From an uncultured Bacilli bacterium (lineage in GTDB: Bacteria; Bacillota_I; Bacilli_A; RF39; UBA660), in assembly GCA_947632455.1 (NCBI GenBank), contig CANRPK010000003.1:2476-66475 (forward strand): a stretch of DNA of 64,000 nucleotides. The letters are read 5' to 3'. The notes beneath the pieces were generated by a model. The model made no database searches, had not been told where the DNA came from, and saw only the letters and a program-made list of their open reading frames with translations. This document shows, piece after piece, positions 9,789 through 52,076 of the stretch (within the stretch, counting starts at the first letter, position 1; each line of letters begins with the position of its first letter). The translations under genes were made by a program, and so were the position numbers.

Positions 9789-12611
9789 ATGAATACATTA
9801 GAAATAGAAAAAAAATGGCAAAATATTTGGCAAGAAAATCACTATTTTGAAGCCAAAAACAATAGTGATAAACCAAAATATTATATCCTAGTAGAATTTC
9901 CTTATCCATCAGGATCTGGACTTCATGTTGGTCATGTAAGAAGTTATTCTGCACTAGATGCTATGGCTCGTATGAAAAGAATGCAAGGTTATAATGTGTT
10001 ATTTCCTATGGGTTGGGATGCTTTTGGAGCTCCAGCCGAACAATACGCCATCAAAAATCATATTTACCCAGCTGATGCAGTTAAAGAAAATATCAAAACT
10101 TTTAAAGGTCAAATTCAATCTTTAGGAATGTCTTTTGATTGGTCTAGAGAGTTTTCAACTACTGATCCAGAATATTATAAATGGACCCAATGGCAATTCT
10201 TACAATTTGTCAAAAAAGGCATGGCCTATAAAGCTGCTAAAGAAATAAATTGGTGTCCAAATTGTAAAACAGGGTTATCCAATGAAGATGCTGCCGGAGG
10301 AGTATGTGAAAGATGTGGAACTCCCGTAACTAAAAAATTAAAAAATCAATGGCTTTTAAAAATGAGTTCATATGCTGATAGATTATTAGATGGTCTAAAA
10401 GATACTGAATTTGAAGAAAGAATTAAAGTTGCGCAAATAAATTGGATAGGAAAAAGTATAGGTGCAGAAGTAAATTTCCAAGTAAAAGATACCGATTATT
10501 TATTAAAAGTTTTTACTACTCGTTGTGATACTTTATTTGGTGTAACCTTTATGGTTATTTCTCCAGAACATGAATTATTAACAAAATATGCCTCTAAAAT
10601 TAAAAATATTGAAGAAGTAAAAGAATATCAAGAACAAGCTAAAAATAAAAATGAAATTGAAAGAACCGATGTAACTAAAGAAAAAACTGGTGTTAGATTA
10701 GAAGGCCTAATGGCTATTAACCCTGTTAATAATACCGAAATTCCTATATATATTAGTGATTATGTTTTATCATCTTATGGAACTGGTGCTATTATGGCTG
10801 TTCCTGCTCATGATGAAAGAGATTATGATTTTGCTAAAAAATATAATATTCCTATAATTCAAGTTTTAGAAGAAACTACTGGTACTCCTAAAGAAGAAGA
10901 AACCAAAAAGAATTCTATAGTCGCGATTGTTTATGATCGAAAAAAAGATCAATACTTAACAATTAATTGGAATGAATTAGGTGGTCGTCTCTTTATTGGT
11001 GGTACTATTAAAGAAGGGGAAACTCCTCTTGAATGTGCTCTAAGAGAAATAAAAGAAGAAACAGGATATAAAAATTTAACTTTAAAATATACTCTACCTA
11101 TGATAAATCACCATTATTATGCTTATAATAAAGATAAATATTTTAATATCAATTCGACTGGCTTATATTTTGAACTAAATAATTATGATCAAGATTCTCA
11201 AGCCTTAGATAATGATGAAAAATTCACTGTTGAATGGATAGATAAATCTACCATATTAAATGAAGTAAAAGATGAATTACATGCTAAAACTTTTGCTTAT
11301 GCCTTAACGCCTGGCGCTATGGTCGGAGATGGAATACATATTAATTCTGAATTTCTTAATGGGTTAAATAAAGAAGATGCTATAAATAAAATGCTTGAAT
11401 TTTTAAGTTCTAACAATTTAGGTAAACAAGCGACAAATTATCGTTTACAAGATTGGATTTTCTCTCGTCAAAGATTCTGGGGTGAACCAATTCCAATGAT
11501 TTATTGCGATACTTGTGGTTGGGTTCCTGTTCCTGAAGAAGATCTTCCTGTATTACTTCCAACTGTAGCTAATTATGAACCTACTGATACTGGAGAATCT
11601 CCTCTTGCAAATATTACCGATTGGGTAAATACTACTTGTCCAAAATGTGGTAAACCTGCTCAAAGAGAAACTGATACTATGCCAAACTGGGCTGGTTCAA
11701 GTTGGTATTGGTTAAGATATATGGATGCCCATAATGATCAAGAATTTGTTGGTCGTGATGCCTTAAATTATTGGGGTATGGTAGATTATTATAATGGTGG
11801 TATGGAACATGCAACAAGACATTTATTATATGCAAGATTTTGGCATCAATTCTTATACGATCAAGGTTTAGTTCCAACCAAAGAACCATTTAAAAAACGT
11901 GTCGCGCATGGTATGATTTTAGGAGCTAATGGCGAAAAAATGAGTAAAAGTAAAGGAAATGTCATTAATCCTGATGATATGGTTAAACTTTATGGCGCTG
12001 ATGCTCTTCGTTGCTATGAATTATTTATTGGTGACTATGAAAAAGATGCTGCTTGGTCTGATAATGGTCTAAAAGGCTGTAGAAGATTTTTAGATCGTGT
12101 TGAAAGATTAAAAGAAAGAGTAATAGAAGGGGAAAATTATAGTTCATCTCTAGAAAATATTATTCATAAAACTATTAAAAAAGTTACTAATGATTTAGCC
12201 ACTATGAAATATAATACGGCAGTATCAAGTTTAATGATTTTAACTAATGCTTATGAAGAACAAGAAAATATAACTAAAAAAGATTATCAAACTTTATTAA
12301 TTCTTTTAAATCCTATTGCTCCTCATATAACTGAAGAACTAAATGAACAAATAGAATATACTACTAAAATTGTTGAAACTCCATGGCCAAGTTATGATGA
12401 AGCAAAAACTATCGACGATGAAGTAACTATTGGTATCCAAGTAAATGGCAAACTTCGTGGTGAAATTACGATTGAACCTGATGAAGAAGAGGAAAGTGTT
12501 AAAACTAAAGCTCTAGCCAATGAAAATGTTAAAAAACATATAGAAGGTAAAGAAATAATAAAAATAATTGTTATAAAAGGTAAAATTGTCAACATAGTCA
12601 TCAAACCTTAA
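9789..12611 (+). CDS. leuS: Leucyl-tRNA synthetase carrying an inserted Nudix domain
   Basis: Class I motifs HVGHVRSY and KMSKSKGN, and the CP1 editing domain. An ATG at 9789 with a purine-rich RBS is preferred over the GTG at 9780. There is an extra insertion of about 140 aa (see findings). Confidence 0.95.
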   Translation: MNTLEIEKKWQNIWQENHYFEAKNNSDKPKYYILVEFPYPSGSGLHVGHVRSYSALDAMARMKRMQGYNVLFPMGWDAFGAPAEQYAIKNHIYPADAVKENIKTFKGQIQSLGMSFDWSREFSTTDPEYYKWTQWQFLQFVKKGMAYKAAKEINWCPNCKTGLSNEDAAGGVCERCGTPVTKKLKNQWLLKMSSYADRLLDGLKDTEFEERIKVAQINWIGKSIGAEVNFQVKDTDYLLKVFTTRCDTLFGVTFMVISPEHELLTKYASKIKNIEEVKEYQEQAKNKNEIERTDVTKEKTGVRLEGLMAINPVNNTEIPIYISDYVLSSYGTGAIMAVPAHDERDYDFAKKYNIPIIQVLEETTGTPKEEETKKNSIVAIVYDRKKDQYLTINWNELGGRLFIGGTIKEGETPLECALREIKEETGYKNLTLKYTLPMINHHYYAYNKDKYFNINSTGLYFELNNYDQDSQALDNDEKFTVEWIDKSTILNEVKDELHAKTFAYALTPGAMVGDGIHINSEFLNGLNKEDAINKMLEFLSSNNLGKQATNYRLQDWIFSRQRFWGEPIPMIYCDTCGWVPVPEEDLPVLLPTVANYEPTDTGESPLANITDWVNTTCPKCGKPAQRETDTMPNWAGSSWYWLRYMDAHNDQEFVGRDALNYWGMVDYYNGGMEHATRHLLYARFWHQFLYDQGLVPTKEPFKKRVAHGMILGANGEKMSKSKGNVINPDDMVKLYGADALRCYELFIGDYEKDAAWSDNGLKGCRRFLDRVERLKERVIEGENYSSSLENIIHKTIKKVTNDLATMKYNTAVSSLMILTNAYEEQENITKKDYQTLLILLNPIAPHITEELNEQIEYTTKIVETPWPSYDEAKTIDDEVTIGIQVNGKLRGEITIEPDEEEESVKTKALANENVKKHIEGKEIIKIIVIKGKIVNIVIKP

Positions 12612-20129: not shown

Positions 20130-20204
20130 GGAGCAAGTGAGCGGAATCGAACCGCCGTCTCAACCTTGGCAAGGTCGCATACTAACCGCTGTACTACACC
20201 TGCG
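20130..20204 (-). tRNA. tRNA-Gly (GCC)
   Basis: The reverse complement GCAGGTGTAGTACAGCGGTTAGTATGCGACCTTGCCAAGGTTGAGACGGCGGTTCGATTCCGCTCACTTGCTCCA folds as a cloverleaf. Anticodon loop TTGCCAA, encoded CCA. Confidence 0.9.
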
Positions 20205-28837: not shown

Positions 28838-28851
28838 CGAACCTTTTTTTT
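28814..28851 (+). terminator. Terminator at the end of cdaR
   Basis: AAGGTTCGT ... ACGAACCTT followed by a T8 run. The stem spans the cdaR stop codon. Confidence 0.6.
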
Positions 28852-29050
28852 ATTCACATATAGTAATTAATTCTCCAACAGAACAATCTAAATATTTGCA
28901 AAACTCTTCAATATATTTAAACGATATCGAAGTAGTATCACCTCTAATAATTCTATTAATATTTCTAGAAGTAATATTCATTCTTTGACATAACCAATAT
29001 TTAGTTTTACCTTTCTTTTTTAATAATTCTTCAATATTTATTTTAATCAT
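28850..29050 (-). CDS. XRE-family HTH regulator (66 aa), divergent from paralog copy 1
   Basis: KTKYWLCQRMNITSRNINRIIRGDTTSISFKYIEEFCKYLDCSVGELI is a Cro/C1-type HTH. Confidence 0.8.
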   Translation of the reverse strand: MIKINIEELLKKKGKTKYWLCQRMNITSRNINRIIRGDTTSISFKYIEEFCKYLDCSVGELITICE

Positions 29051-29182: not shown

Positions 29183-30667
29183 ATGAAAATAGAAAGGTTA
29201 GAAATAAGTAATAAAAAAGTAAAGATAGCATTTATAGTAGGAATAGTATTAACAGCAATATTATTTATAATGGTAAATTATTTAGTTACTAAAGCAAAGT
29301 ATCGAAATACAGAAAGCCTAGATTTAGTAAAAGGAACAATTACATATAATAAAGCAGATCTAAACATAATCGCGATGTATCAAGAAAGTAGCTATGGTAC
29401 AAATGGCTATAAACAAATAGATGATGTGCCAACAGAAAAATATACATTAAGTAATAAAAGTTATTGTGAAGTAGGCAGTCAAAAAGTAGAAGATGCTCAA
29501 ATTGAATATAGAGAAGGAGCAATATATGTAGGAAATATCAAAAAAAGAGGAACAAAATGTTATATATATTTTGATTTGGATTATAAGGCAGATGATATGT
29601 TAGCAAAATTAGAAACAATAAAACAAAGTAAATATGAAAAAACAGCAATGCCAAATCCAATCACAGGACCATACGATGCGGATGTAGAAAACCCGGAACA
29701 TAAAGAAAAAATATATACAACCGAAGATAACTACGGAACCAGTTATGTATTTAGAGGCAATAATGATGATGTAAATAACTGGGTAACATTTGCTAATCAT
29801 ACATGGAGGATAATCCGAATAAATGGAGATGGAACATTAAGGTTAATATTCCAATGTGCAGAGCCAAATTGTACAGATACAAAGGGACCAACAACCCAAA
29901 TAGGAAAAAGTGCATATAAATTAGCACCGCTTGATGATAATACCTATGTAGGATATTATTATGGCGAAGCGGGTCAAGACACATATGATAAAACTCATAC
30001 TAATGCTCATCCAAGCGATGTAGCAAAAGCTGTTGATAATTGGTATACCGGTACAGGAAATATGACTTCATATACTAAATATTTAAGTGGAGACACTGGA
30101 TTTTGTAATGATCGAGTAGTAGTTACTAAAGTTTGGAATGATTATGAAGGCAATGGAACAGGACAGTCTGCAACAGGATATGGTCCAGCAGCCAGATTAA
30201 TACTTAATGGCGGATGGAGAAAAAGTCAATACCCAACATTAAAGTGTGGGGTTAATATTGGTGGAGTAAATAAAGAAACATATGATAATTTTGATGTAGA
30301 TCCAACAGCATTAAAAAGAGATTTATTTACTACCAAGAACTCAGGCAGAGGTAACGAAATACTTACATATCCAGTAGGACTTATCACAAGTGATGAAGTT
30401 ACTATGGCTGGACTATTCGGAGGAACAGCATTTGCTGATTACTGGTTATATACAAATCAACATTATTGGACAATGTCTCCTAATTGGTATGATGTCAATA
30501 ATAAGGTGGCTGACGTGTTCCCTGTGCATGAGAATGGCAACTTTTACTACTGCGGCGTTGGTAGCGTTCATGGAGTGCGTCCAGTAATTAATCTTAATGC
30601 CGATATCGAATTTAGTGGAGGTACTGGTAAATCCGATAATCCATTTATCGTAAAAACAAGCAATTAA
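29183..30667 (+). CDS. Membrane-anchored paralog family protein, copy 1 (lectin-like C-terminal module)
   Basis: One N-terminal TM helix. Shares NWVTFANHTWRIIRINGDGTLRLIFQC, YVGYYYG, FCNDR, LKCG, LITSDEV, YWTMSP and GVRPVINLNADIEFSGG with 40641, 42526 and 50091. Confidence 0.85.
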   Translation: MKIERLEISNKKVKIAFIVGIVLTAILFIMVNYLVTKAKYRNTESLDLVKGTITYNKADLNIIAMYQESSYGTNGYKQIDDVPTEKYTLSNKSYCEVGSQKVEDAQIEYREGAIYVGNIKKRGTKCYIYFDLDYKADDMLAKLETIKQSKYEKTAMPNPITGPYDADVENPEHKEKIYTTEDNYGTSYVFRGNNDDVNNWVTFANHTWRIIRINGDGTLRLIFQCAEPNCTDTKGPTTQIGKSAYKLAPLDDNTYVGYYYGEAGQDTYDKTHTNAHPSDVAKAVDNWYTGTGNMTSYTKYLSGDTGFCNDRVVVTKVWNDYEGNGTGQSATGYGPAARLILNGGWRKSQYPTLKCGVNIGGVNKETYDNFDVDPTALKRDLFTTKNSGRGNEILTYPVGLITSDEVTMAGLFGGTAFADYWLYTNQHYWTMSPNWYDVNNKVADVFPVHENGNFYYCGVGSVHGVRPVINLNADIEFSGGTGKSDNPFIVKTSN

Positions 30668-30670
30668 AAA

Positions 30671-30708
30671 CTTGTCTATACTGCTTTCTTATTCCAAGTA
30701 TAGACAAG
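30671..30708 (+). other. Conserved post-stop hairpin, copy 1
   Basis: 12-bp stem CTTGTCTATACT/AGTATAGACAAG with 14-nt loop GCTTTCTTATTCCA. No T-run follows. Confidence 0.7.
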
Positions 30709-30721
30709 ATATATTATCAAA

Positions 30722-40058: not shown

Positions 40059-40508
40059 TTAACTTATTCTCCCAAGTAAATAATCCGCGGATATATTATA
40101 TCTTTTACATATTTCATATAAAAAAGAAGTTGAAATAAGATATCTTCCTCTCTCATAATCTGCAATAACTGAATGAGTAGTATTTAAAATATCTGCTAAT
40201 CTCTCTTGAGTAAGCTTATTATCTTTTCTAAATTTTTTTAATCTTTCTCCCAGTAATTCTTTTTTATATTGTTTTTCACTTTTTTTAAATTGTTTATTAT
40301 CAGTAAAACTAAATATATAATCTAAAGAAACATTAAAGTAATCACATAAATTAATTAAATGTTTTAAAGGCATGATAGTATATTCTGTTTCATACTGATT
40401 ATATGTTCCTTTATATATTTCTAATAAATCTGCCACTTCATATTGTTTTAAGTTTTTACTTTCTCTTAGTTCAATTAATCTTTTGCTATACATTGTATTC
40501 ACCAACAT
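40059..40508 (-). CDS. XRE-family regulator with two HTH domains (149 aa), divergent from copy 2
   Basis: Two Cro/C1 HTH units: LKQYEVADLLEIYKGTYNQYE and LTQERLADILNTTHSVIADYERG. Confidence 0.8.
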   Translation of the reverse strand: MLVNTMYSKRLIELRESKNLKQYEVADLLEIYKGTYNQYETEYTIMPLKHLINLCDYFNVSLDYIFSFTDNKQFKKSEKQYKKELLGERLKKFRKDNKLTQERLADILNTTHSVIADYERGRYLISTSFLYEICKRYNISADYLLGRIS

Positions 40509-40640: not shown

Positions 40641-42110
40641 ATGAAGATAGAAAAAATAGGGGAAACAAATAAATATAAATGGATAATAATAGGCTTTATC
40701 ATTTGTGCCAGTTTATTTGTTATGATAAATTACCTAATAACCAAAGCAAAATACCGAAATACAGAAAGTGTAGATTTAGTAAAAGGAACAATTACCTATA
40801 ATAAAGCAGATCTAAACATAATAGCGATGTATCAAGAAAGCAGTTATGGTACAAATGGGTATAAACAAATAGATGATGTACCAACTGAAAAATATACATT
40901 AAGTAATAAAAGTTATTGTGAAGTAGAAGGACAAAAAGTAGAAGAAGCCCAAATAACATATGAAGAAGGGTATATAAGTGTAAGTAAAATAAATAAAAGA
41001 GGAACAAAATGCTATATCTATTTTGACTTAGATTATACATCAGAAGATATGTTAGCAAAGTTAGAAGAAACAAAACAAAGTACATATGAAAAAACAACAA
41101 TGCCAAATCCAATCACAGGACCATATGATGAGCAAAAAGAAAATCCAGAACATAAAGAGAAACTATATACAACCGAAGATAATTATGGAACCAGTTATGT
41201 ATTTAGAGGAAACAATGAAGATGTAAATAACTGGGTAACATTTGCTAACCATACATGGAGGATAATCCGAATAAATGGAGATGGAACATTAAGAATGATA
41301 TTCCAATGTGCAACTCCAGGATGTACAGATACAGAAGGGTCAATAACCACAATAGGTAATAGTGCATATAAATTAGCCCCATTTGATGATAATGCATATG
41401 TCGGATATTATTACGGCGAAGCAGGACAAGACACATATGATAAAACTCACACCAATGCTTATCCGAGTAAAGTATCAGAAACCATAAAAGAGTGGTATAA
41501 CAAAAATGACAATATGACTAATTATACTAAATATTTAAGTGGAGATACAGGATGGTGTAATGATCGAGTAGTGGTTCAAAATCTTTGGGAAAGTGCTAAA
41601 GGCGATGGATCCAATAAATCCACTACAATTTATGGTCCAGCAAATAGACAAAAATTAAATAATGTTTGGAGAAAAGAACAATATGCAAATTTAAAATGTG
41701 GAACAATTTATGCTAATGATTTAAGTACTTTTTCATATAATGAGAAAGTAATGGAAAGGGATTTATTTACAACAGAAGGATCAATTCAAGGAAATGGAAA
41801 ACTCCCGGTTCCAGCCGCGTTAATCACAAGTGATGAAGCCTTGATGGTTGGAGGCTTTGGAGGAACAGCAAGCACAAATCATTGGCTATACACCAACCAA
41901 AATTATTGGACAATGTCTCCTTTTTGGTACGATGGAAATATGAATTGGGCCGTAATGTTTGCTATAAAAAGTGATGGTAGTGTTTATCATGAAAAAATAG
42001 GAATAACCAATAATGGAGTTCGCCCCGTAATTAATTTAAATGCTGATATAGAATTTAGCGGAGGAGACGGAAAATCATCTAATCCATTTATCGTAAAAAC
42101 AAACATATAA
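40641..42110 (+). CDS. Membrane-anchored paralog family protein, copy 2
   Basis: Same architecture and conserved blocks as copy 1. The 5' ~185 nt are about 94% identical to copy 1. Confidence 0.85.
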   Translation: MKIEKIGETNKYKWIIIGFIICASLFVMINYLITKAKYRNTESVDLVKGTITYNKADLNIIAMYQESSYGTNGYKQIDDVPTEKYTLSNKSYCEVEGQKVEEAQITYEEGYISVSKINKRGTKCYIYFDLDYTSEDMLAKLEETKQSTYEKTTMPNPITGPYDEQKENPEHKEKLYTTEDNYGTSYVFRGNNEDVNNWVTFANHTWRIIRINGDGTLRMIFQCATPGCTDTEGSITTIGNSAYKLAPFDDNAYVGYYYGEAGQDTYDKTHTNAYPSKVSETIKEWYNKNDNMTNYTKYLSGDTGWCNDRVVVQNLWESAKGDGSNKSTTIYGPANRQKLNNVWRKEQYANLKCGTIYANDLSTFSYNEKVMERDLFTTEGSIQGNGKLPVPAALITSDEALMVGGFGGTASTNHWLYTNQNYWTMSPFWYDGNMNWAVMFAIKSDGSVYHEKIGITNNGVRPVINLNADIEFSGGDGKSSNPFIVKTNI

Positions 42111-42114
42111 AAAA

Positions 42115-42152
42115 TTTGACTATACTGCTTTCTTATTCCAAGTATAGTCAAA
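42115..42152 (+). other. Conserved post-stop hairpin, copy 2
   Basis: Stem TTTGACTATACT/AGTATAGTCAAA with the identical loop GCTTTCTTATTCCA. A separate terminator hairpin lies at 42156-42179. Confidence 0.7.
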
Positions 42153-42177
42153 AATAATAGGCTCAATAAGCCTATTT

Positions 42178-42387
42178 TTATTTACTAGTTTCTTTTATAA
42201 ATTTAATTATTTCCGTATCGGGAATTTTTAAAATCGTAAGTAATTTAGCAATAGTTTCAAATTTAGCATATCTATAATTACCATTTTCTATTCTAAATAA
42301 ATTTCTCCATGAAATATCACATAATTCAGCTAATTCTTCTAAAGTATAATTATTTTTAATTCTATACTCCTTTAACATACATATCAC
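42178..42387 (-). CDS. XRE-family HTH regulator (69 aa), divergent from copy 3
   Basis: YTLEELAELCDISWRNLFRIENG is a Cro/C1 HTH. Confidence 0.8.
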   Translation of the reverse strand: MICMLKEYRIKNNYTLEELAELCDISWRNLFRIENGNYRYAKFETIAKLLTILKIPDTEIIKFIKETSK

Positions 42388-42525: not shown

Positions 42526-44034
42526 ATGAAAATAGAAAGGTTAGATATTGATAGTAAAAGAAATAAGACAATATTTGTAGTAGGATTTATATTAGCAATA
42601 ATATTAGTAATAGTAATAAACTATATAACCAGTCTAGCAAGATATAGGAATACAGAAAGTATAGAACTAGCAAGTGGTAATATAAACTACAATAAGGCAG
42701 ATTTGAATATAATCGCTATGTATCAAGAAAAAGATGATAGTACATCTGAAGAGAAAGAATATATAAATATAAATAAGATACCCACAATAGGATATAAATT
42801 AAGTGAAGATAGTTATTGTGAAATAAATGGAGAGCCAATAGAAGAAGTAGAGATAGAATATAAAAATAGTGCAATATATGTAGGAAATATAACAGAAAAA
42901 GGAACAAAATGTTATATATATTTTGATAGTTTAGTAAAAGAAATGTTAGGTAAATTAGAAACCTCAAAGGGAAGTAAATATACCATAGATGAAATGCCAA
43001 ATCCAATCACAGGACCATATGATGAAAGTACAGAAAATCCTGAAGGAGAAGAAAAATTATATACCAGTCCAGATAATTATGGAACCAGTTATGTCTTTAG
43101 AGGAAATAATGATGACGTAAATAACTGGGTAACTTTTGCTAATCATACATGGAGAATAATCAGAATAAATGGAGATGGAACATTAAGGTTAATATTCCAA
43201 TGTGCAACTGAAAATTGTACTGATGCAATCGGTGAAAATACCCAAATAGGAAAAAGTGCTTATAAATCTAAACCGTTTGATGATAATACCTATGTAGGAT
43301 ATTATTATGGAACAGCACACACAGATGAAAAACCAAGTCCAAGTTATGAAGAAGCACATTCAAACTCTACGATAGCTAAAGCAATAAATAATTGGTACAG
43401 TGGTACAGGAGCAATGACAGATTACACCAATTATTTAGAGGGAAGCACAGGATTTTGTAATGATCGAGTAGTAGTAAAAAATGTTTTGAATACGTTTGAA
43501 GGCGATGGTGCCGCACAAAGTTCAACAGGTTATGCACCAGCCGCCAGATTAATTTCAACTAGCGTACGGAGAACAAAACAATATCCAACATTAAAGTGTG
43601 GAGTTGTAATGCCAGAAATAAGCCCATCAAATGATGTAGGATTTAATAGTTTTGATGAGATAGATACTACCGCATTAAAAAGAGACTTATTCACAGTAGA
43701 AGGTTCAGATAGAGGAAATGCAAAGCTTCCAGTGCCAGTAGGGCTTATCACTAGTGATGAAGTAGCAATGGCTGGAGGCTTTGGAAGAACAGTCTCTACT
43801 GATTACTGGTTATATACAAATCAAGATTATTGGACAATGTCTCCACGAGACTATGATGCTTCGGTTAAGTGGGCTAATGTGTTCGCTGTTCGTGAAGATG
43901 GCACCCTCAACAGTTGGAGCATTAGAGATAGTCGTAGTGGAATGCGTCCAGTCATCAACTTAAAAGCTGATATTGAATTTAGTGGAGGAGCTGGAAAATC
44001 ATCTAATCCATTTATTGTAAATACAAGTAATTAA
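42526..44034 (+). CDS. Membrane-anchored paralog family protein, copy 3
   Basis: Same conserved blocks. Tandem to copy 2. Confidence 0.85.
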   Translation: MKIERLDIDSKRNKTIFVVGFILAIILVIVINYITSLARYRNTESIELASGNINYNKADLNIIAMYQEKDDSTSEEKEYININKIPTIGYKLSEDSYCEINGEPIEEVEIEYKNSAIYVGNITEKGTKCYIYFDSLVKEMLGKLETSKGSKYTIDEMPNPITGPYDESTENPEGEEKLYTSPDNYGTSYVFRGNNDDVNNWVTFANHTWRIIRINGDGTLRLIFQCATENCTDAIGENTQIGKSAYKSKPFDDNTYVGYYYGTAHTDEKPSPSYEEAHSNSTIAKAINNWYSGTGAMTDYTNYLEGSTGFCNDRVVVKNVLNTFEGDGAAQSSTGYAPAARLISTSVRRTKQYPTLKCGVVMPEISPSNDVGFNSFDEIDTTALKRDLFTVEGSDRGNAKLPVPVGLITSDEVAMAGGFGRTVSTDYWLYTNQDYWTMSPRDYDASVKWANVFAVREDGTLNSWSIRDSRSGMRPVINLKADIEFSGGAGKSSNPFIVNTSN

Positions 44035-44079
44035 AAACATGCCTATACTGCTTTCTTATTCCAAGTATGGGCATGTTTT
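44032..44079 (+). other. Conserved post-stop hairpin, copy 3 (also terminator-like)
   Basis: 17-bp stem AAAAACATGCCTATACT/AGTATGGGCATGTTTTT (one G-T pair) with the identical loop GCTTTCTTATTCCA. Confidence 0.7.
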
Positions 44080-44207
44080 TAATATCTAATAAATACTCAT
44101 ATTTAATTATCTAATATATTTATAAAAAGAATAAAATTTATCATTTTTTCTTGATTTTGAAATATATATATGATAGACTTATTAATAGAATAAAAGGTGG
44201 TGTAAGG

Positions 44208-49692: not shown

Positions 49693-49722
49693 AAAGTCGC
49701 TTTTAAAGCGACTAATTTTTTT
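49691..49722. terminator. Bidirectional terminator shared by the ABC operon and the convergent XRE gene
   Basis: AGTCGCTT-TTA-AAGCGACT flanked by an A-run and a T-run. Confidence 0.6.
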
Positions 49723-49957
49723 GTATTAATTTATCTAAACTTACATCTAAAGCAATAGAAATTCTATATAAAGTATCTACCGAAAAAGTATTAGCAACTT
49801 TTTCACTTTCAATTTGGCGAATAAAATCATGAGATAAATCTACTAATTCCGCCAGTTGAGCCGCCGTCATTCCTTTTTCTTTTCGATATTTTTTTATATT
49901 TTTTCGAATGGTTCCATAAATATCCGTATCAAATTGCAATTTCTTCAAACTAACCAC
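49712..49957 (-). CDS. XRE-family HTH regulator (81 aa), divergent from copy 4
   Basis: MTAAQLAELVDLSHDFIRQIESEK is a Cro/C1 HTH. Confidence 0.8.
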   Translation of the reverse strand: MVSLKKLQFDTDIYGTIRKNIKKYRKEKGMTAAQLAELVDLSHDFIRQIESEKVANTFSVDTLYRISIALDVSLDKLIQKN

Positions 49958-50090: not shown

Positions 50091-52040
50091 ATGACAAAAA
50101 ATCGCATATTAATTGCAATAGTAAGTGTATTGCTTATTGGGGTAGGAATAAGTATGGCATATTTTGCCGCAAAGGTAAGTAGTACAGGTGGAGGAATAAG
50201 TACAGAAGTAACAACCGCTAAAATAGGCGATGTAACAATAGAGATGTATGGAAAATTAGATTTAGATGTTGAAGATATGTATCCAGGACATTCAGATGTA
50301 TCAAGATTAGATGTAAAAGCTACGGGAGATAATAGATTAGTCGCATATAATTTAGTGTGGGCAGGAACAAATAGCCTACAAACAAAAATAGAATATATAG
50401 TATATAGAGTAACAAATACTTTAGAAGTAAGTAGTGCTTGTGAAGTAAAAACAAAAATAATAGAAGAAGGACAAGCCGTATATGAAGAATGTAAAATAAA
50501 TAATATAGATAAATTAGGAAGTCCAGTAGGAAGTGGAACAATAGAGACTGGCGAAGAAATATTAGTAGAGGATGAATTTATAAATGCTAGTCCAACCGGA
50601 GAAGAAATCCATTATTATGTGGTATTAACATATCCAAATAAAGAAGAAGATCAAGATTATGATAGAACAGGGGAATTTAGTGGCGAGATAAAAATAACCA
50701 ATAGTGATGCTAAACCAGATATAACAATCTTAGCCGCATATGTAGAAGATGAAAAGACAGGTAAGTTTAATGAAGCAAAGAAGATACCTGAAGGAGAATA
50801 TAAACTAAATAATAGAAGTACATGTACAAATGGAGCAACCCCAATATGGGATACAAATAATAAAGGATTATTAGTTGCAAATTTAACAGAAACAGGAACT
50901 AGTTGTGTTTTATATTTTGAAAAGAAATATGCATCAGATGATATGTTAGCAAAACTAGAGGCAGCAAGACAAGCAAAATTCAATATCGAAAAGATGCCAA
51001 ATCCCCTCACCGGACCATATAGTGGCGATGCTAGTTCTGATCAACCAATAGCGAATGATAAATTATATACAAGTCCAGATAATTATGGAAGAAGTTATGT
51101 ATTTAGAGGAAACAATTATGATGTTCACAACTGGGTAACATTCGCAGGACATACATGGAGAATAATCAGAATAAATGGAGATGGCACATTAAGATTAATA
51201 TATCAATGTGCTACCCCAGGATGTACAACAACTGAAGGAGAAGGAACTCACATAGGAACAAGTATATATAAGTCAGAAGCAATAGATGATAATACCTATG
51301 TAGGATATTATTATGGAGAACCAGGACAAGAAACATATGATGCCACTCATACAAATGCTCATCAAAGTACTATAGCTAAATATATTTCAGATTGGTATAG
51401 TGGAACAGGAGCAATGACAAATTATACTAAATATTTAAGTGGAGATACAGGATGGTGTAATGACCGAACAGCAGTTAAAAATTTTTTGAATGGATATGAA
51501 GGTGATGGTACGGGTAAAACTTTAACAGGATATGCGCTATCAACAAGACTAATTGCAAAAGGCGGAGCCTGGAGATTAAAACAATATCCGACCTTAAAAT
51601 GTGGAGCGGTAATGCCAGAAGAAAATCCAACAGAAGAAGAAGGAGCAAAATATTTTAGCAATTTTGAAGTAGACAATACTGCTTTAAAAAGAGATTTATA
51701 TACAACAATAGGTTCTAGTAATGGAAATAAAGTATTAGATGTTCCAGCAGCCTTAGTTACAACTGATGAAGTAGCTATGGCAGGAGGCTTTGGAGGTACA
51801 GCTTCTACAAATTATTGGCTATATACAAATCAATATTATTGGGCAATGTCTTCTTGGGGTTATTTTTCAGAAGGCTTTGCTCGTGCGTGGGTTACACAGG
51901 AGGGTGGTGCCTTATGGGGTGCCTGGGAAGTACGTCGTAGTTACGGTGTCCGCCCAGTAATAAATTTAAATGCTGATGTAACATTTAGTGGAGGAACAGG
52001 TACATCAAGTAATCCATTTGTAGTAAATACAAGTAATTAA
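50091..52040 (+). CDS. Paralog family protein, copy 4, with an extra TasA/camelysin-like N-terminal domain
   Basis: N-terminus ILIAIVSVLLIGVGISMAYFAAKVSS and MYPGHSDVSRLDVKATG (TasA-like), followed by the shared core from DDMLAKLEAARQ to GVRPVINLNADVTFSGG. Confidence 0.85.
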   Translation: MTKNRILIAIVSVLLIGVGISMAYFAAKVSSTGGGISTEVTTAKIGDVTIEMYGKLDLDVEDMYPGHSDVSRLDVKATGDNRLVAYNLVWAGTNSLQTKIEYIVYRVTNTLEVSSACEVKTKIIEEGQAVYEECKINNIDKLGSPVGSGTIETGEEILVEDEFINASPTGEEIHYYVVLTYPNKEEDQDYDRTGEFSGEIKITNSDAKPDITILAAYVEDEKTGKFNEAKKIPEGEYKLNNRSTCTNGATPIWDTNNKGLLVANLTETGTSCVLYFEKKYASDDMLAKLEAARQAKFNIEKMPNPLTGPYSGDASSDQPIANDKLYTSPDNYGRSYVFRGNNYDVHNWVTFAGHTWRIIRINGDGTLRLIYQCATPGCTTTEGEGTHIGTSIYKSEAIDDNTYVGYYYGEPGQETYDATHTNAHQSTIAKYISDWYSGTGAMTNYTKYLSGDTGWCNDRTAVKNFLNGYEGDGTGKTLTGYALSTRLIAKGGAWRLKQYPTLKCGAVMPEENPTEEEGAKYFSNFEVDNTALKRDLYTTIGSSNGNKVLDVPAALVTTDEVAMAGGFGGTASTNYWLYTNQYYWAMSSWGYFSEGFARAWVTQEGGALWGAWEVRRSYGVRPVINLNADVTFSGGTGTSSNPFVVNTSN

Positions 52041-52043
52041 ATA

Positions 52044-52076
52044 CATGCCTATAATGCTTATTCATTTATAGGCATG
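52044..52076 (+). other. Conserved post-stop hairpin, copy 4
   Basis: Stem CATGCCTATAA/TTATAGGCATG with the related loop TGCTTATTCAT. Confidence 0.6.

Follow-up and report, generated by a model that had tools for sequence, protein, structure and literature searches.

The reference mechanism for diversity-generating retroelements (DGRs) is that of Bordetella phage BPP-1, a compact, single phage cassette in which one template repeat (TR) serves one target, Mtd, with the accessory protein Avd and the reverse transcriptase Brt. Three of its traits recur in the system described here: adenine-specific substitution between template and variable region (VR), a fixed, G+C-rich border at the 3′ side of the VR, and a VR that forms the binding surface near the C-terminus; in BPP-1, too, the template is followed by a spacer RNA. 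Among the published DGR target domains is DUF6273, in which the VR occupies the C-terminal end (PMC10743442, PMC11792537, bioRxiv 10.1101/2024.10.15.618418); it occurs in human-gut phages in tentaclins and Mtd-like second targets (PMC10743442), in Faecalibacterium prophage targets (PMC11792537) and in Toutatisvirus (bioRxiv 10.1101/2024.10.15.618418). Targets remote from their reverse transcriptase are also documented (PMC5758913). Here we analyse a stretch of 64,000 nucleotides (nt) from an uncultured Bacilli bacterium (GenBank assembly GCA_947632455.1, contig CANRPK010000003.1), referred to as the window, which contains four paralogous genes, copies 1 to 4. A segment of copy 3 that a preliminary description had picked out as hypervariable and G+C-rich is probably the VR of a remote DGR target gene, encoding a membrane-anchored surface protein of the DUF6273 type.

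Like the gut-phage targets, the window genes have a DUF6273-type domain, described there as C-type-lectin-like, with the VR at its C-terminal end on what is predicted to be a surface β hairpin. Further points of resemblance to the phage systems are that one element may have more than one target and that some genomes carry targets without a DGR. The window genes differ from the phage targets in being chromosomal, situated among housekeeping genes and membrane-anchored, in forming a large family in which each gene has its own small upstream helix-turn-helix (HTH) gene, in having no template or reverse transcriptase near them, and in lying below Pfam DUF6273 detection. Scattered paralogous targets far from the reverse transcriptase, presumed to be surface or ligand-binding proteins, are also a property of the cellular remote-target DGRs of Treponema denticola (TvpA family), Legionella and cyanobacteria (PMC5758913, PMC4891356, PMC7517822). 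In those systems, however, all targets fit one template at the non-A positions, whereas the window VRs are too different for one template, and relatives hold many separate template cassettes. The fold is also DUF6273-type here and FGE-sulfatase or DUF1566 type there. Unlike that of BPP-1, the copy 3 VR ends ∼30 codons before the stop codon, and it is not followed immediately by a hairpin such as the BPP-1 cruciform; the only hairpin is a terminator ∼80 nt downstream.

The 93-nt segment at 43845–43937 contains 44 G or C bases (47.3%), as the preliminary description had counted by hand, against a mean of 27.3% (sd 6.8%) for 93-nt intervals across the window. This G+C content is reached by just 0.8% of all such intervals and by none of the 9,903 in-frame 93-nt intervals taken from 20 other genes; of the latter, 0.06% reach its third-position G+C of 0.387 and 1.1% have an A content as low. 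Codons begin at 43846, base 43845 being the final base of a CCA codon, and the variable stretch comprises codons 441–471 of the open reading frame (ORF; Table 1). The earlier remark that its codons stand out from the background of the gene holds: the sole CTC among the gene's 24 Leu codons and the sole TCG among its 43 Ser codons both sit in the segment, and CGN makes up 3 of the 4 Arg codons there but 3 of the 16 elsewhere in the gene. CGA, TCG, ACC, CTC and AGC were all found in frame as listed, but CGT occurs twice rather than three times, since the third (in ATG CGT CCA) falls in the 3′ flank.

Genes of this genome have an average third-position G+C of 0.13. From the amino acids that it encodes and from background codon usage, the copy 3 segment would be expected to have a G+C of 0.38 and a third-position G+C of 0.18; the observed values are 0.47 (P < 0.0002) and 0.39 (P = 0.0008). 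Copy 1 is more extreme, with a third-position G+C of 0.53 where 0.15 is expected. The amino acids thus fail to account for the composition of copies 1 and 3 (P < 0.001), whilst in copy 4 they explain most of the G+C (0.48 expected, 0.53 observed). The A fraction of the copy 3 segment is 0.24 versus 0.42, with T undiminished, and A is likewise low and T undiminished in copies 1 and 4 (Table 1). What marks copy 3 is therefore a loss of A together with a rise in third-position G+C, a signature of mutation or templating rather than of the amino acids encoded. A second patch of ∼48% G+C, conserved among the copies, lies just upstream (43734–43793) with a third-position G+C of ∼0.2 (by count); raw G+C alone is thus not unique to the variable segment, but third-position G+C and A depletion are. 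The equivalent segment of copy 2 has an ordinary, A+T-rich composition although its protein is equally divergent. The common interpretation proposed for copies 1, 3 and 4 is thus partly supported, with the refinement that the anomaly does not extend to copy 2.

The 47% local G+C and the foreign codon usage could also be read as the mark of a piece acquired horizontally from an organism of higher G+C. This is very improbable, because the anomaly is just 93 nt long and in frame, the gene having its usual low-G+C coding sequence on both sides, and because copies 1 and 4, as well as many relatives whose genomes have 25–35% G+C, show it in the same place, with identical borders everywhere.

The segment is discrete, lies at a paralogous position in the four copies and has the highest column entropy of the protein, which bears out its description as the equivalent of the hypervariable segments of the other copies. 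In an alignment of 35 close homologues, from a family with more than 2,300, the three 10-residue blocks over residues 441–470 have entropies of 2.2–2.7 bits, compared with ≤2.0 elsewhere. On the 5′ side, TGGACAATGTCTCCA is present in all four copies with 0, 1, 1 and 3 mismatches. On the 3′ side, GGAATGCGTCCAGT is found again within 3 mismatches in copy 1 alone; copies 2 and 4 differ from it at 4 bases (counted on the alignment), yet encode G-V-R-P-V, and the flank reads G-[VM]-R-P-V in all four proteins. The reported conservation of the flanks among the copies therefore applies to the DNA of the 5′ flank and, for the 3′ flank, to the protein, with close DNA in copy 1 only. These borders are the ones at which the templates of related genomes begin and end, their homology spanning (A)TGTCTCC to GGTG.CCGCCC. 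The 3′ border is the site where an element like the initiation of mutagenic homing (IMH) sequence would sit, and may have a role in homing.

Templates and enzymes of this type were found in relatives. A metagenome scan gave 80 loci with family members. One of these (L073) contains bAvd, an RVT_1 reverse transcriptase (IGNMTSQ...YMDD) and a family member with a VR between W-T-M-S-P and G-A-R-P. Downstream, the VR segment of this target recurs seven or more times in template-like form, arranged as an array, and against the first of these copies the VR mismatches at 10 of 25 template A positions but at 3 of 88 other bases. This locus is a proven DGR in a relative. A clean pair from UMGS1172 (Tenericutes), on two separately fetched 8-kb stretches of one contig, mismatches at 22/33 A and 5/72 other bases, and in two further loci (L086, L077) the order is target, TR, Avd. 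The L008 homologue, 40% identical over its full length, is accompanied by three stand-alone cassettes encoding Asn-rich peptides such as MSPYNFNNGNANVFYVNSNGNLNNNNVDWTEPGVRP, with homology to the gene from ATGTCTCC to GGTGTGCGCCC. The position and borders of the copy 3 VR are homologous to those of the demonstrated TR–VR pairs in L073, L008 and L099/L097.

Eight cassettes on five contigs share a layout of TATAAT box, leader (GGTTAATCTA), template, conserved spacer of ∼150–170 nt and terminator-like end. In total, 76 cassettes were counted in the fetched DNA, and the spacer motif occurs in 42 stretches of GTDB genomes (uncultured Bacilli, ‘Mycoplasma sp. CAG:776’, Tenericutes UMGS1172 and Ca. 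Caccenecus), several per genome. No Rfam family fits the template cassettes, and their spacers are too conserved to show covariation. A scan of the GTDB representative genomes with protein motifs of the family gave only matches judged to be at chance level. The stand-alone cassettes of L008 lie at 5965–8675 and alternate with two genes for YhcG/DUF1016 PD-(D/E)XK nucleases (6285–7028 and 7472–8395); others are at L013, L043, L083, L016 and L087–L128. A reverse transcriptase beside the family gene of L033 was considered as a DGR enzyme and rejected, as it is a group II intron maturase.

Copy 3 has the non-A scaffold of these templates. Its codons GCT AAT GTG TTC GCT GTT CGT GAA GAT GGC ACC CTC AAC AGT correspond to GCT AAC GTG TTC xxT GTG AAT TCG AAT GGC AAC CTC AAC AAC in the templates, and the unusual synonymous codons of copy 3 are thus those of the template scaffold, GTG TTC, GGC and CTC AAC being common to both. 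Mismatch rates by template base were pooled over all 66 unique templates, unselected and heterologous. The rates at A, C, G and T were 0.52, 0.37, 0.38 and 0.30 for copy 3, 0.49, 0.37, 0.29 and 0.27 for copy 1, and 0.73, 0.54, 0.30 and 0.37 for copy 4. For copy 2 they were 0.32, 0.59, 0.46 and 0.33, highest at C and G as expected for decay from G+C to A+T. Copy 3 thus combines A depletion with a retained non-A scaffold, synonymous sites included, and copy 2 appears to be a decayed VR that is no longer rewritten, providing an internal control. The paralogues of the same species (n = 16) contain a G+C-rich class, with a third-position G+C of 0.37–0.59 and the scaffold GTG TTC / GGC / CTC, and an A+T-rich class, with 0.07–0.30 and ATA TTT / GGT / CTT.

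An explanation that needs no retroelement would be a binding loop under diversifying selection, with gene conversion among the paralogues and with the G+C arising from W, G, R and A residues and a biased conversion hotspot. The VR identity is indeed equal at the three codon positions (0.46, 0.48 and 0.47; 0.79, 0.81 and 0.64 in the rest of the gene), comparisons of orthologues are mosaic, with several divergent patches and indels, and the G+C excess of copy 4 comes mostly from its amino acids. We nevertheless regard this explanation as improbable. It does not account for the composition of copies 1 and 3, for a loss that hits A alone and not A and T together, or for scaffold synonymous codons that match non-coding templates of other genera, from which the divergence is A-biased; moreover, the borders coincide exactly with the template borders, and copy 2, equally variable in protein, lacks the G+C excess. 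Thus, the evidence favours a DGR variable region and speaks against horizontal acquisition or plain diversifying selection as the main cause.

In the mechanism we propose, a dedicated reverse transcriptase and Avd would copy the TR RNA into cDNA, with the template adenines copied unfaithfully, and the cDNA would then replace the VR between fixed borders, which here would be ATGTCTCC at the 5′ side and GG.(G/A)T.CG.CC at the 3′ side. The G+C would have two sources. The templates of the family have ∼45% G+C, and fixed scaffold codons (GTG TTC ... GGC AAC CTC AAC) would be copied faithfully, whilst mutagenesis of adenines would take out A. A segment that is not rewritten would drift to A+T in a genome of 27% G+C, as copy 2 seems to have done. 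We infer that copy 3 itself has undergone retrohoming, now or recently, from a template and enzyme located elsewhere in the same genome, as in other remote targets; present-day activity of the system is unproven.

The AlphaFold model of full-length copy 3 has a mean predicted local distance difference test score (pLDDT) of 87.9 and a membrane helix at residues 11–39; for residues 150–502 the pLDDT is 94.2. The modelled VR area contains three β strands (435–444, 449–455 and 461–465) in a three-stranded β hairpin region. A fold search of the PDB with residues 150–502 matched one solved structure confidently, 9qa6 (probability 1.00, E = 2.7e-5, 366 aligned columns), although identity is 12% and the TM-scores are low (0.33 and 0.16). 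This is the IgA peptidase ThomasA of Thomasclavelia ramosa, whose N-terminal domain is annotated as DUF6273 (PMC12402451); unlike that of copy 3, its DUF6273 domain is non-variable, part of a secreted peptidase and without established function (PMC12402451). Matches to the full-length model include several phage proteins that bear the name ‘DUF6273 domain-containing protein’ (probabilities up to 0.94), so that the predicted fold of copy 3 matches DUF6273 structures. Among homologues at 33–41% identity, the Pfam DUF6273 profile scores 28.6 bits for P0070, 23.6 for P0078, 23.4 for P0085 and 19.1 for L008 (cut-off 23.5), and these matches cover profile positions 126–172, which is the VR stretch. 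The C-type-lectin-like character of DUF6273 is taken from the literature (PMC10743442, bioRxiv 10.1101/2024.10.15.618418). A PDB sequence search gave chance antibody light-chain matches only. From the model, the VR most likely forms an exposed β hairpin of a DUF6273-type domain and would most likely be ligand-binding.

Several results weigh against a DGR variable region in copy 3. The Pfam DUF6273 profile (PF19789) does not match the window copies even at E up to 10, and two fold searches against the PDB retrieved neither Mtd nor TvpA, with only weak, non-significant matches to C-type lectins (E above 2). An ungapped scan of both strands with the four VRs (≤45% mismatches) and nhmmer searches with VR and cassette profiles found no template in the window other than the four VRs themselves, and the conserved spacer motif has no match there within 3 mismatches. 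Neither reverse transcriptase nor Avd was found in the window or in the same-species loci L001–L003 and L129–L131 by motif regular expressions or by phmmer with the L073 proteins; for L132–L136, which were not screened by these two methods, the listed Pfam annotations include neither RVT_1 nor bAvd. The same-species loci L001–L003 and L129–L136 contain a single template cassette, in L129. Even the best heterologous templates mismatch copy 3 at 25 of 77–78 non-A positions, and no cognate template was found. Differences among the four VRs, and between the VRs of two strains, reach ∼65% of positions and include one-codon indels; beyond the VR, the domain has further strain-variable patches, with indels. 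Near-identical allele pairs (≥90% identity) have identical VRs in 7 of 9 cases, with one further pair in which no VR was located, and in the P0090 cluster, which groups relatives of the L008 target, the 9 members compared all have one and the same VR, although one of these members was seen on 148 contigs.

Adenines make up ∼28% of the template bases, so the VR divergence exceeds what the adenines of one template could give; more than one template, recombination among the paralogues, or a combination of the two must be involved. A single template common to all four copies was rejected, there being too many varying positions as well as indels. The two remaining allele pairs differ at 3 VR residues (V/N, L/N and S/T) and at 18. 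The near-identical alleles as a whole do not show the VR-limited variation of ongoing diversification, which bears on present activity and not on origin. The VR of the P0090 cluster is invariant although Asn-rich templates lie 1.5–4 kb away.

The locus L001 is syntenic with the window, with a backbone 97.8–98.7% identical. Its alignment to the window breaks at the variable parts, for copy 4 (by BLAST) at 51851/51947, which are the edges of the VR. Copy 4 also has three strongly divergent patches outside the VR (51212–51280, 51450–51700 and 51750–51770), one of them with indels, between strains ∼98% identical elsewhere; these patches cannot be explained by a template of ∼100 nt. The window has four family members; in one metagenome sample of the same species, four contigs together carry at least eight. 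L129 comes from the same sample as L001, with similar coverage, and has a cassette of leader, template and spacer (E = 5e-22) directly downstream of a paralogue. Its template differs from the adjoining VR at 16/26 A and 29/90 other bases (P = 0.007), an A bias that speaks for the DGR reading; the latter count, 32% of non-A positions, is a loose fit that speaks against it, and the two are no clean cognate pair. Against copy 3 it mismatches at 12/26 A and 34/93 other bases and is not the cognate of copy 3. The L129 cassette, at 11767–12031, is diverged and lies between the family paralogue and the rpsJ ribosomal protein operon.

The main rival explanation, which we consider unlikely but well ahead of the two already discussed, is that of a DGR relic. 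The segments would have been written in the past, the enzyme or the templates since lost or silenced, and the present diversity would come from recombination between paralogues and ordinary mutation. A relic would fit a window without reverse transcriptase, Avd or TR, the identical VRs of 7 of 9 allele pairs and of the nine P0090 cluster members, the decayed VRs of copy 2 and several same-species paralogues, and the loose fit of the L129 template. It is less easily reconciled with a third-position G+C of 0.39–0.59 that persists in a genome averaging 0.13, which argues for recent writing, with the highly conserved leaders and spacers kept by the cassettes of related genomes, or with the Avd–reverse transcriptase loci of related species.

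These loci (L137–L140, reached via P0380 and P0373) lie beside family genes in related species of the same sample series. The L137/L139-type loci belong to different species, whose family gene shares ∼38% identity with the family in the window. The L137 and L139 contigs have no template repeat, which fits templates that are unlinked from the enzyme. We therefore put forward, tentatively and with clearly less confidence than the VR assignment itself, a split and multiplexed DGR in this clade of uncultured gut Bacilli. A template-less Avd–reverse transcriptase locus would serve many stand-alone cassettes and rewrite about a dozen chromosomal surface-protein genes, the window copies being remote targets. 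Each cassette would have its own promoter, leader, template, spacer (∼150–170 nt) and terminator, and each target would be paired with a small HTH gene. Swapping of templates in such a system would make VRs differ beyond the adenine positions. The Avd–reverse transcriptase loci of the clade (L137 9271–11117, L139 2063–3909 and L073 6889–8793) also contain a small ORF of 125–135 residues, with a weak match to MutS domain I in L139/L140 and L073.

If the assignment of the copy 3 segment as a DGR variable region is correct, an uncultured gut bacterium of low G+C maintains a set of related surface receptors, and a retroelement acting in trans rewrites their binding tips. Standard DGR surveys need a VR adjacent to the reverse transcriptase (PMC8144416), and so remote targets like these are missed. 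The composition signature, a short in-frame island that is poor in A and has a raised third-position G+C, within a conserved domain of the DUF6273 type, may be a cheap means of flagging orphan DGR targets in A+T-rich genomes. In the DGR literature consulted, systems with many independent cassettes per genome and template-less reverse transcriptase loci are counted but not characterized. The window alone amounts to an informed annotation and not a new principle.

Table 1. Coordinates of copy 3, its paralogues and associated features in the window
Feature	Position	Strand	Description	Basis
Copy 3 gene	42526..44034	+	502-residue protein: N-terminal membrane anchor, β-rich domain, large C-terminal DUF6273-like domain	ORF, AlphaFold, fold matches
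Copy 3 VR	43846..43938	+	31 codons, RDYDASVKWANVFAVREDGTLNSWSIRDSRS; probable variable region	Composition, entropy, borders, template mismatches, model
Copy 3 5′ border	43831..43845	+	TGGACAATGTCTCCA (W-T-M-S-P), conserved	Template homology of relatives starts at ATGTCTCC
Copy 3 3′ border	43939..43952	+	GGAATGCGTCCAGT (G-M-R-P-V), conserved, G+C-rich	3′ end of template homology of relatives (GGTGTGCGCCC)
Terminator-like hairpin after copy 3 stop codon	44017..44096	+	Loop CTGCTTTCTTATTCCAAG conserved	Inverted repeat
Small gene upstream of copy 3	42178..42387	-	XRE-type HTH-like, 69 residues, divergent	ORF
Copy 1 gene	29183..30667	+	VR 30482-30571: G+C 0.44, third-position G+C 0.53, A 0.23	
Copy 2 gene	40641..42110	+	VR 41922-42014: G+C 0.30, third-position G+C 0.23, A 0.38	
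Copy 4 gene	50091..52040	+	649 residues, N-terminal extension; VR 51855-51944: G+C 0.53, A 0.16	
Small ORFs upstream of copies 1, 2 and 4	28850-29050, 40059-40508, 49712-49957	-	Divergent	ORF list
Hairpins at the ends of copies 1, 2, 3 and 4	30667-30710, 42110-42155, 44034-44096, 52040-52075			

The small genes upstream of the four copies encode 66–149 residues, some with a double HTH. Within the window, only that upstream of copy 2 matches Pfam HTH_3; in L001, L129, L130, L132, L134 and L136, every paralogue has an HTH_3 gene upstream, and the pairing with a small gene holds for all 12 paralogues in same-species loci. The small HTH genes may provide copy-specific regulation. The first ∼150 residues of copy 4 (50091–50540) are extra, with their own hydrophobic start, and are not in the other three copies.

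Copies 1, 2 and 3 are followed by hairpins with one and the same loop, CTGCTTTCTTATTCCAAG, whilst the stems vary between copies but remain paired (GTCTATAC/GTATAGAC, GACTATAC/GTATAGTC and GCCTATAC/GTATGGGC). A variant of this loop follows the family genes in L137 and L139, whose proteins are only ∼38–44% identical.

The neighbours of the four copies are housekeeping genes, encoding a P-type ATPase, SirA, HU, ABC transporters, enolase and leucyl-tRNA synthetase. The enolase is 80–81% identical to those of a ‘Bacilli bacterium’ metagenome-assembled genome and of ‘Mycoplasma sp. CAG:776’. Rfam matches over the window were to tRNAs only; a cluster of five tRNAs (57518–57949, + strand) and a lone tRNA (20132–20203, − strand) form two other G+C-rich spots. 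The leucyl-tRNA synthetase ORF (9780–12611, 943 residues) has a NUDIX match at residues 380–499, right after the editing domain.

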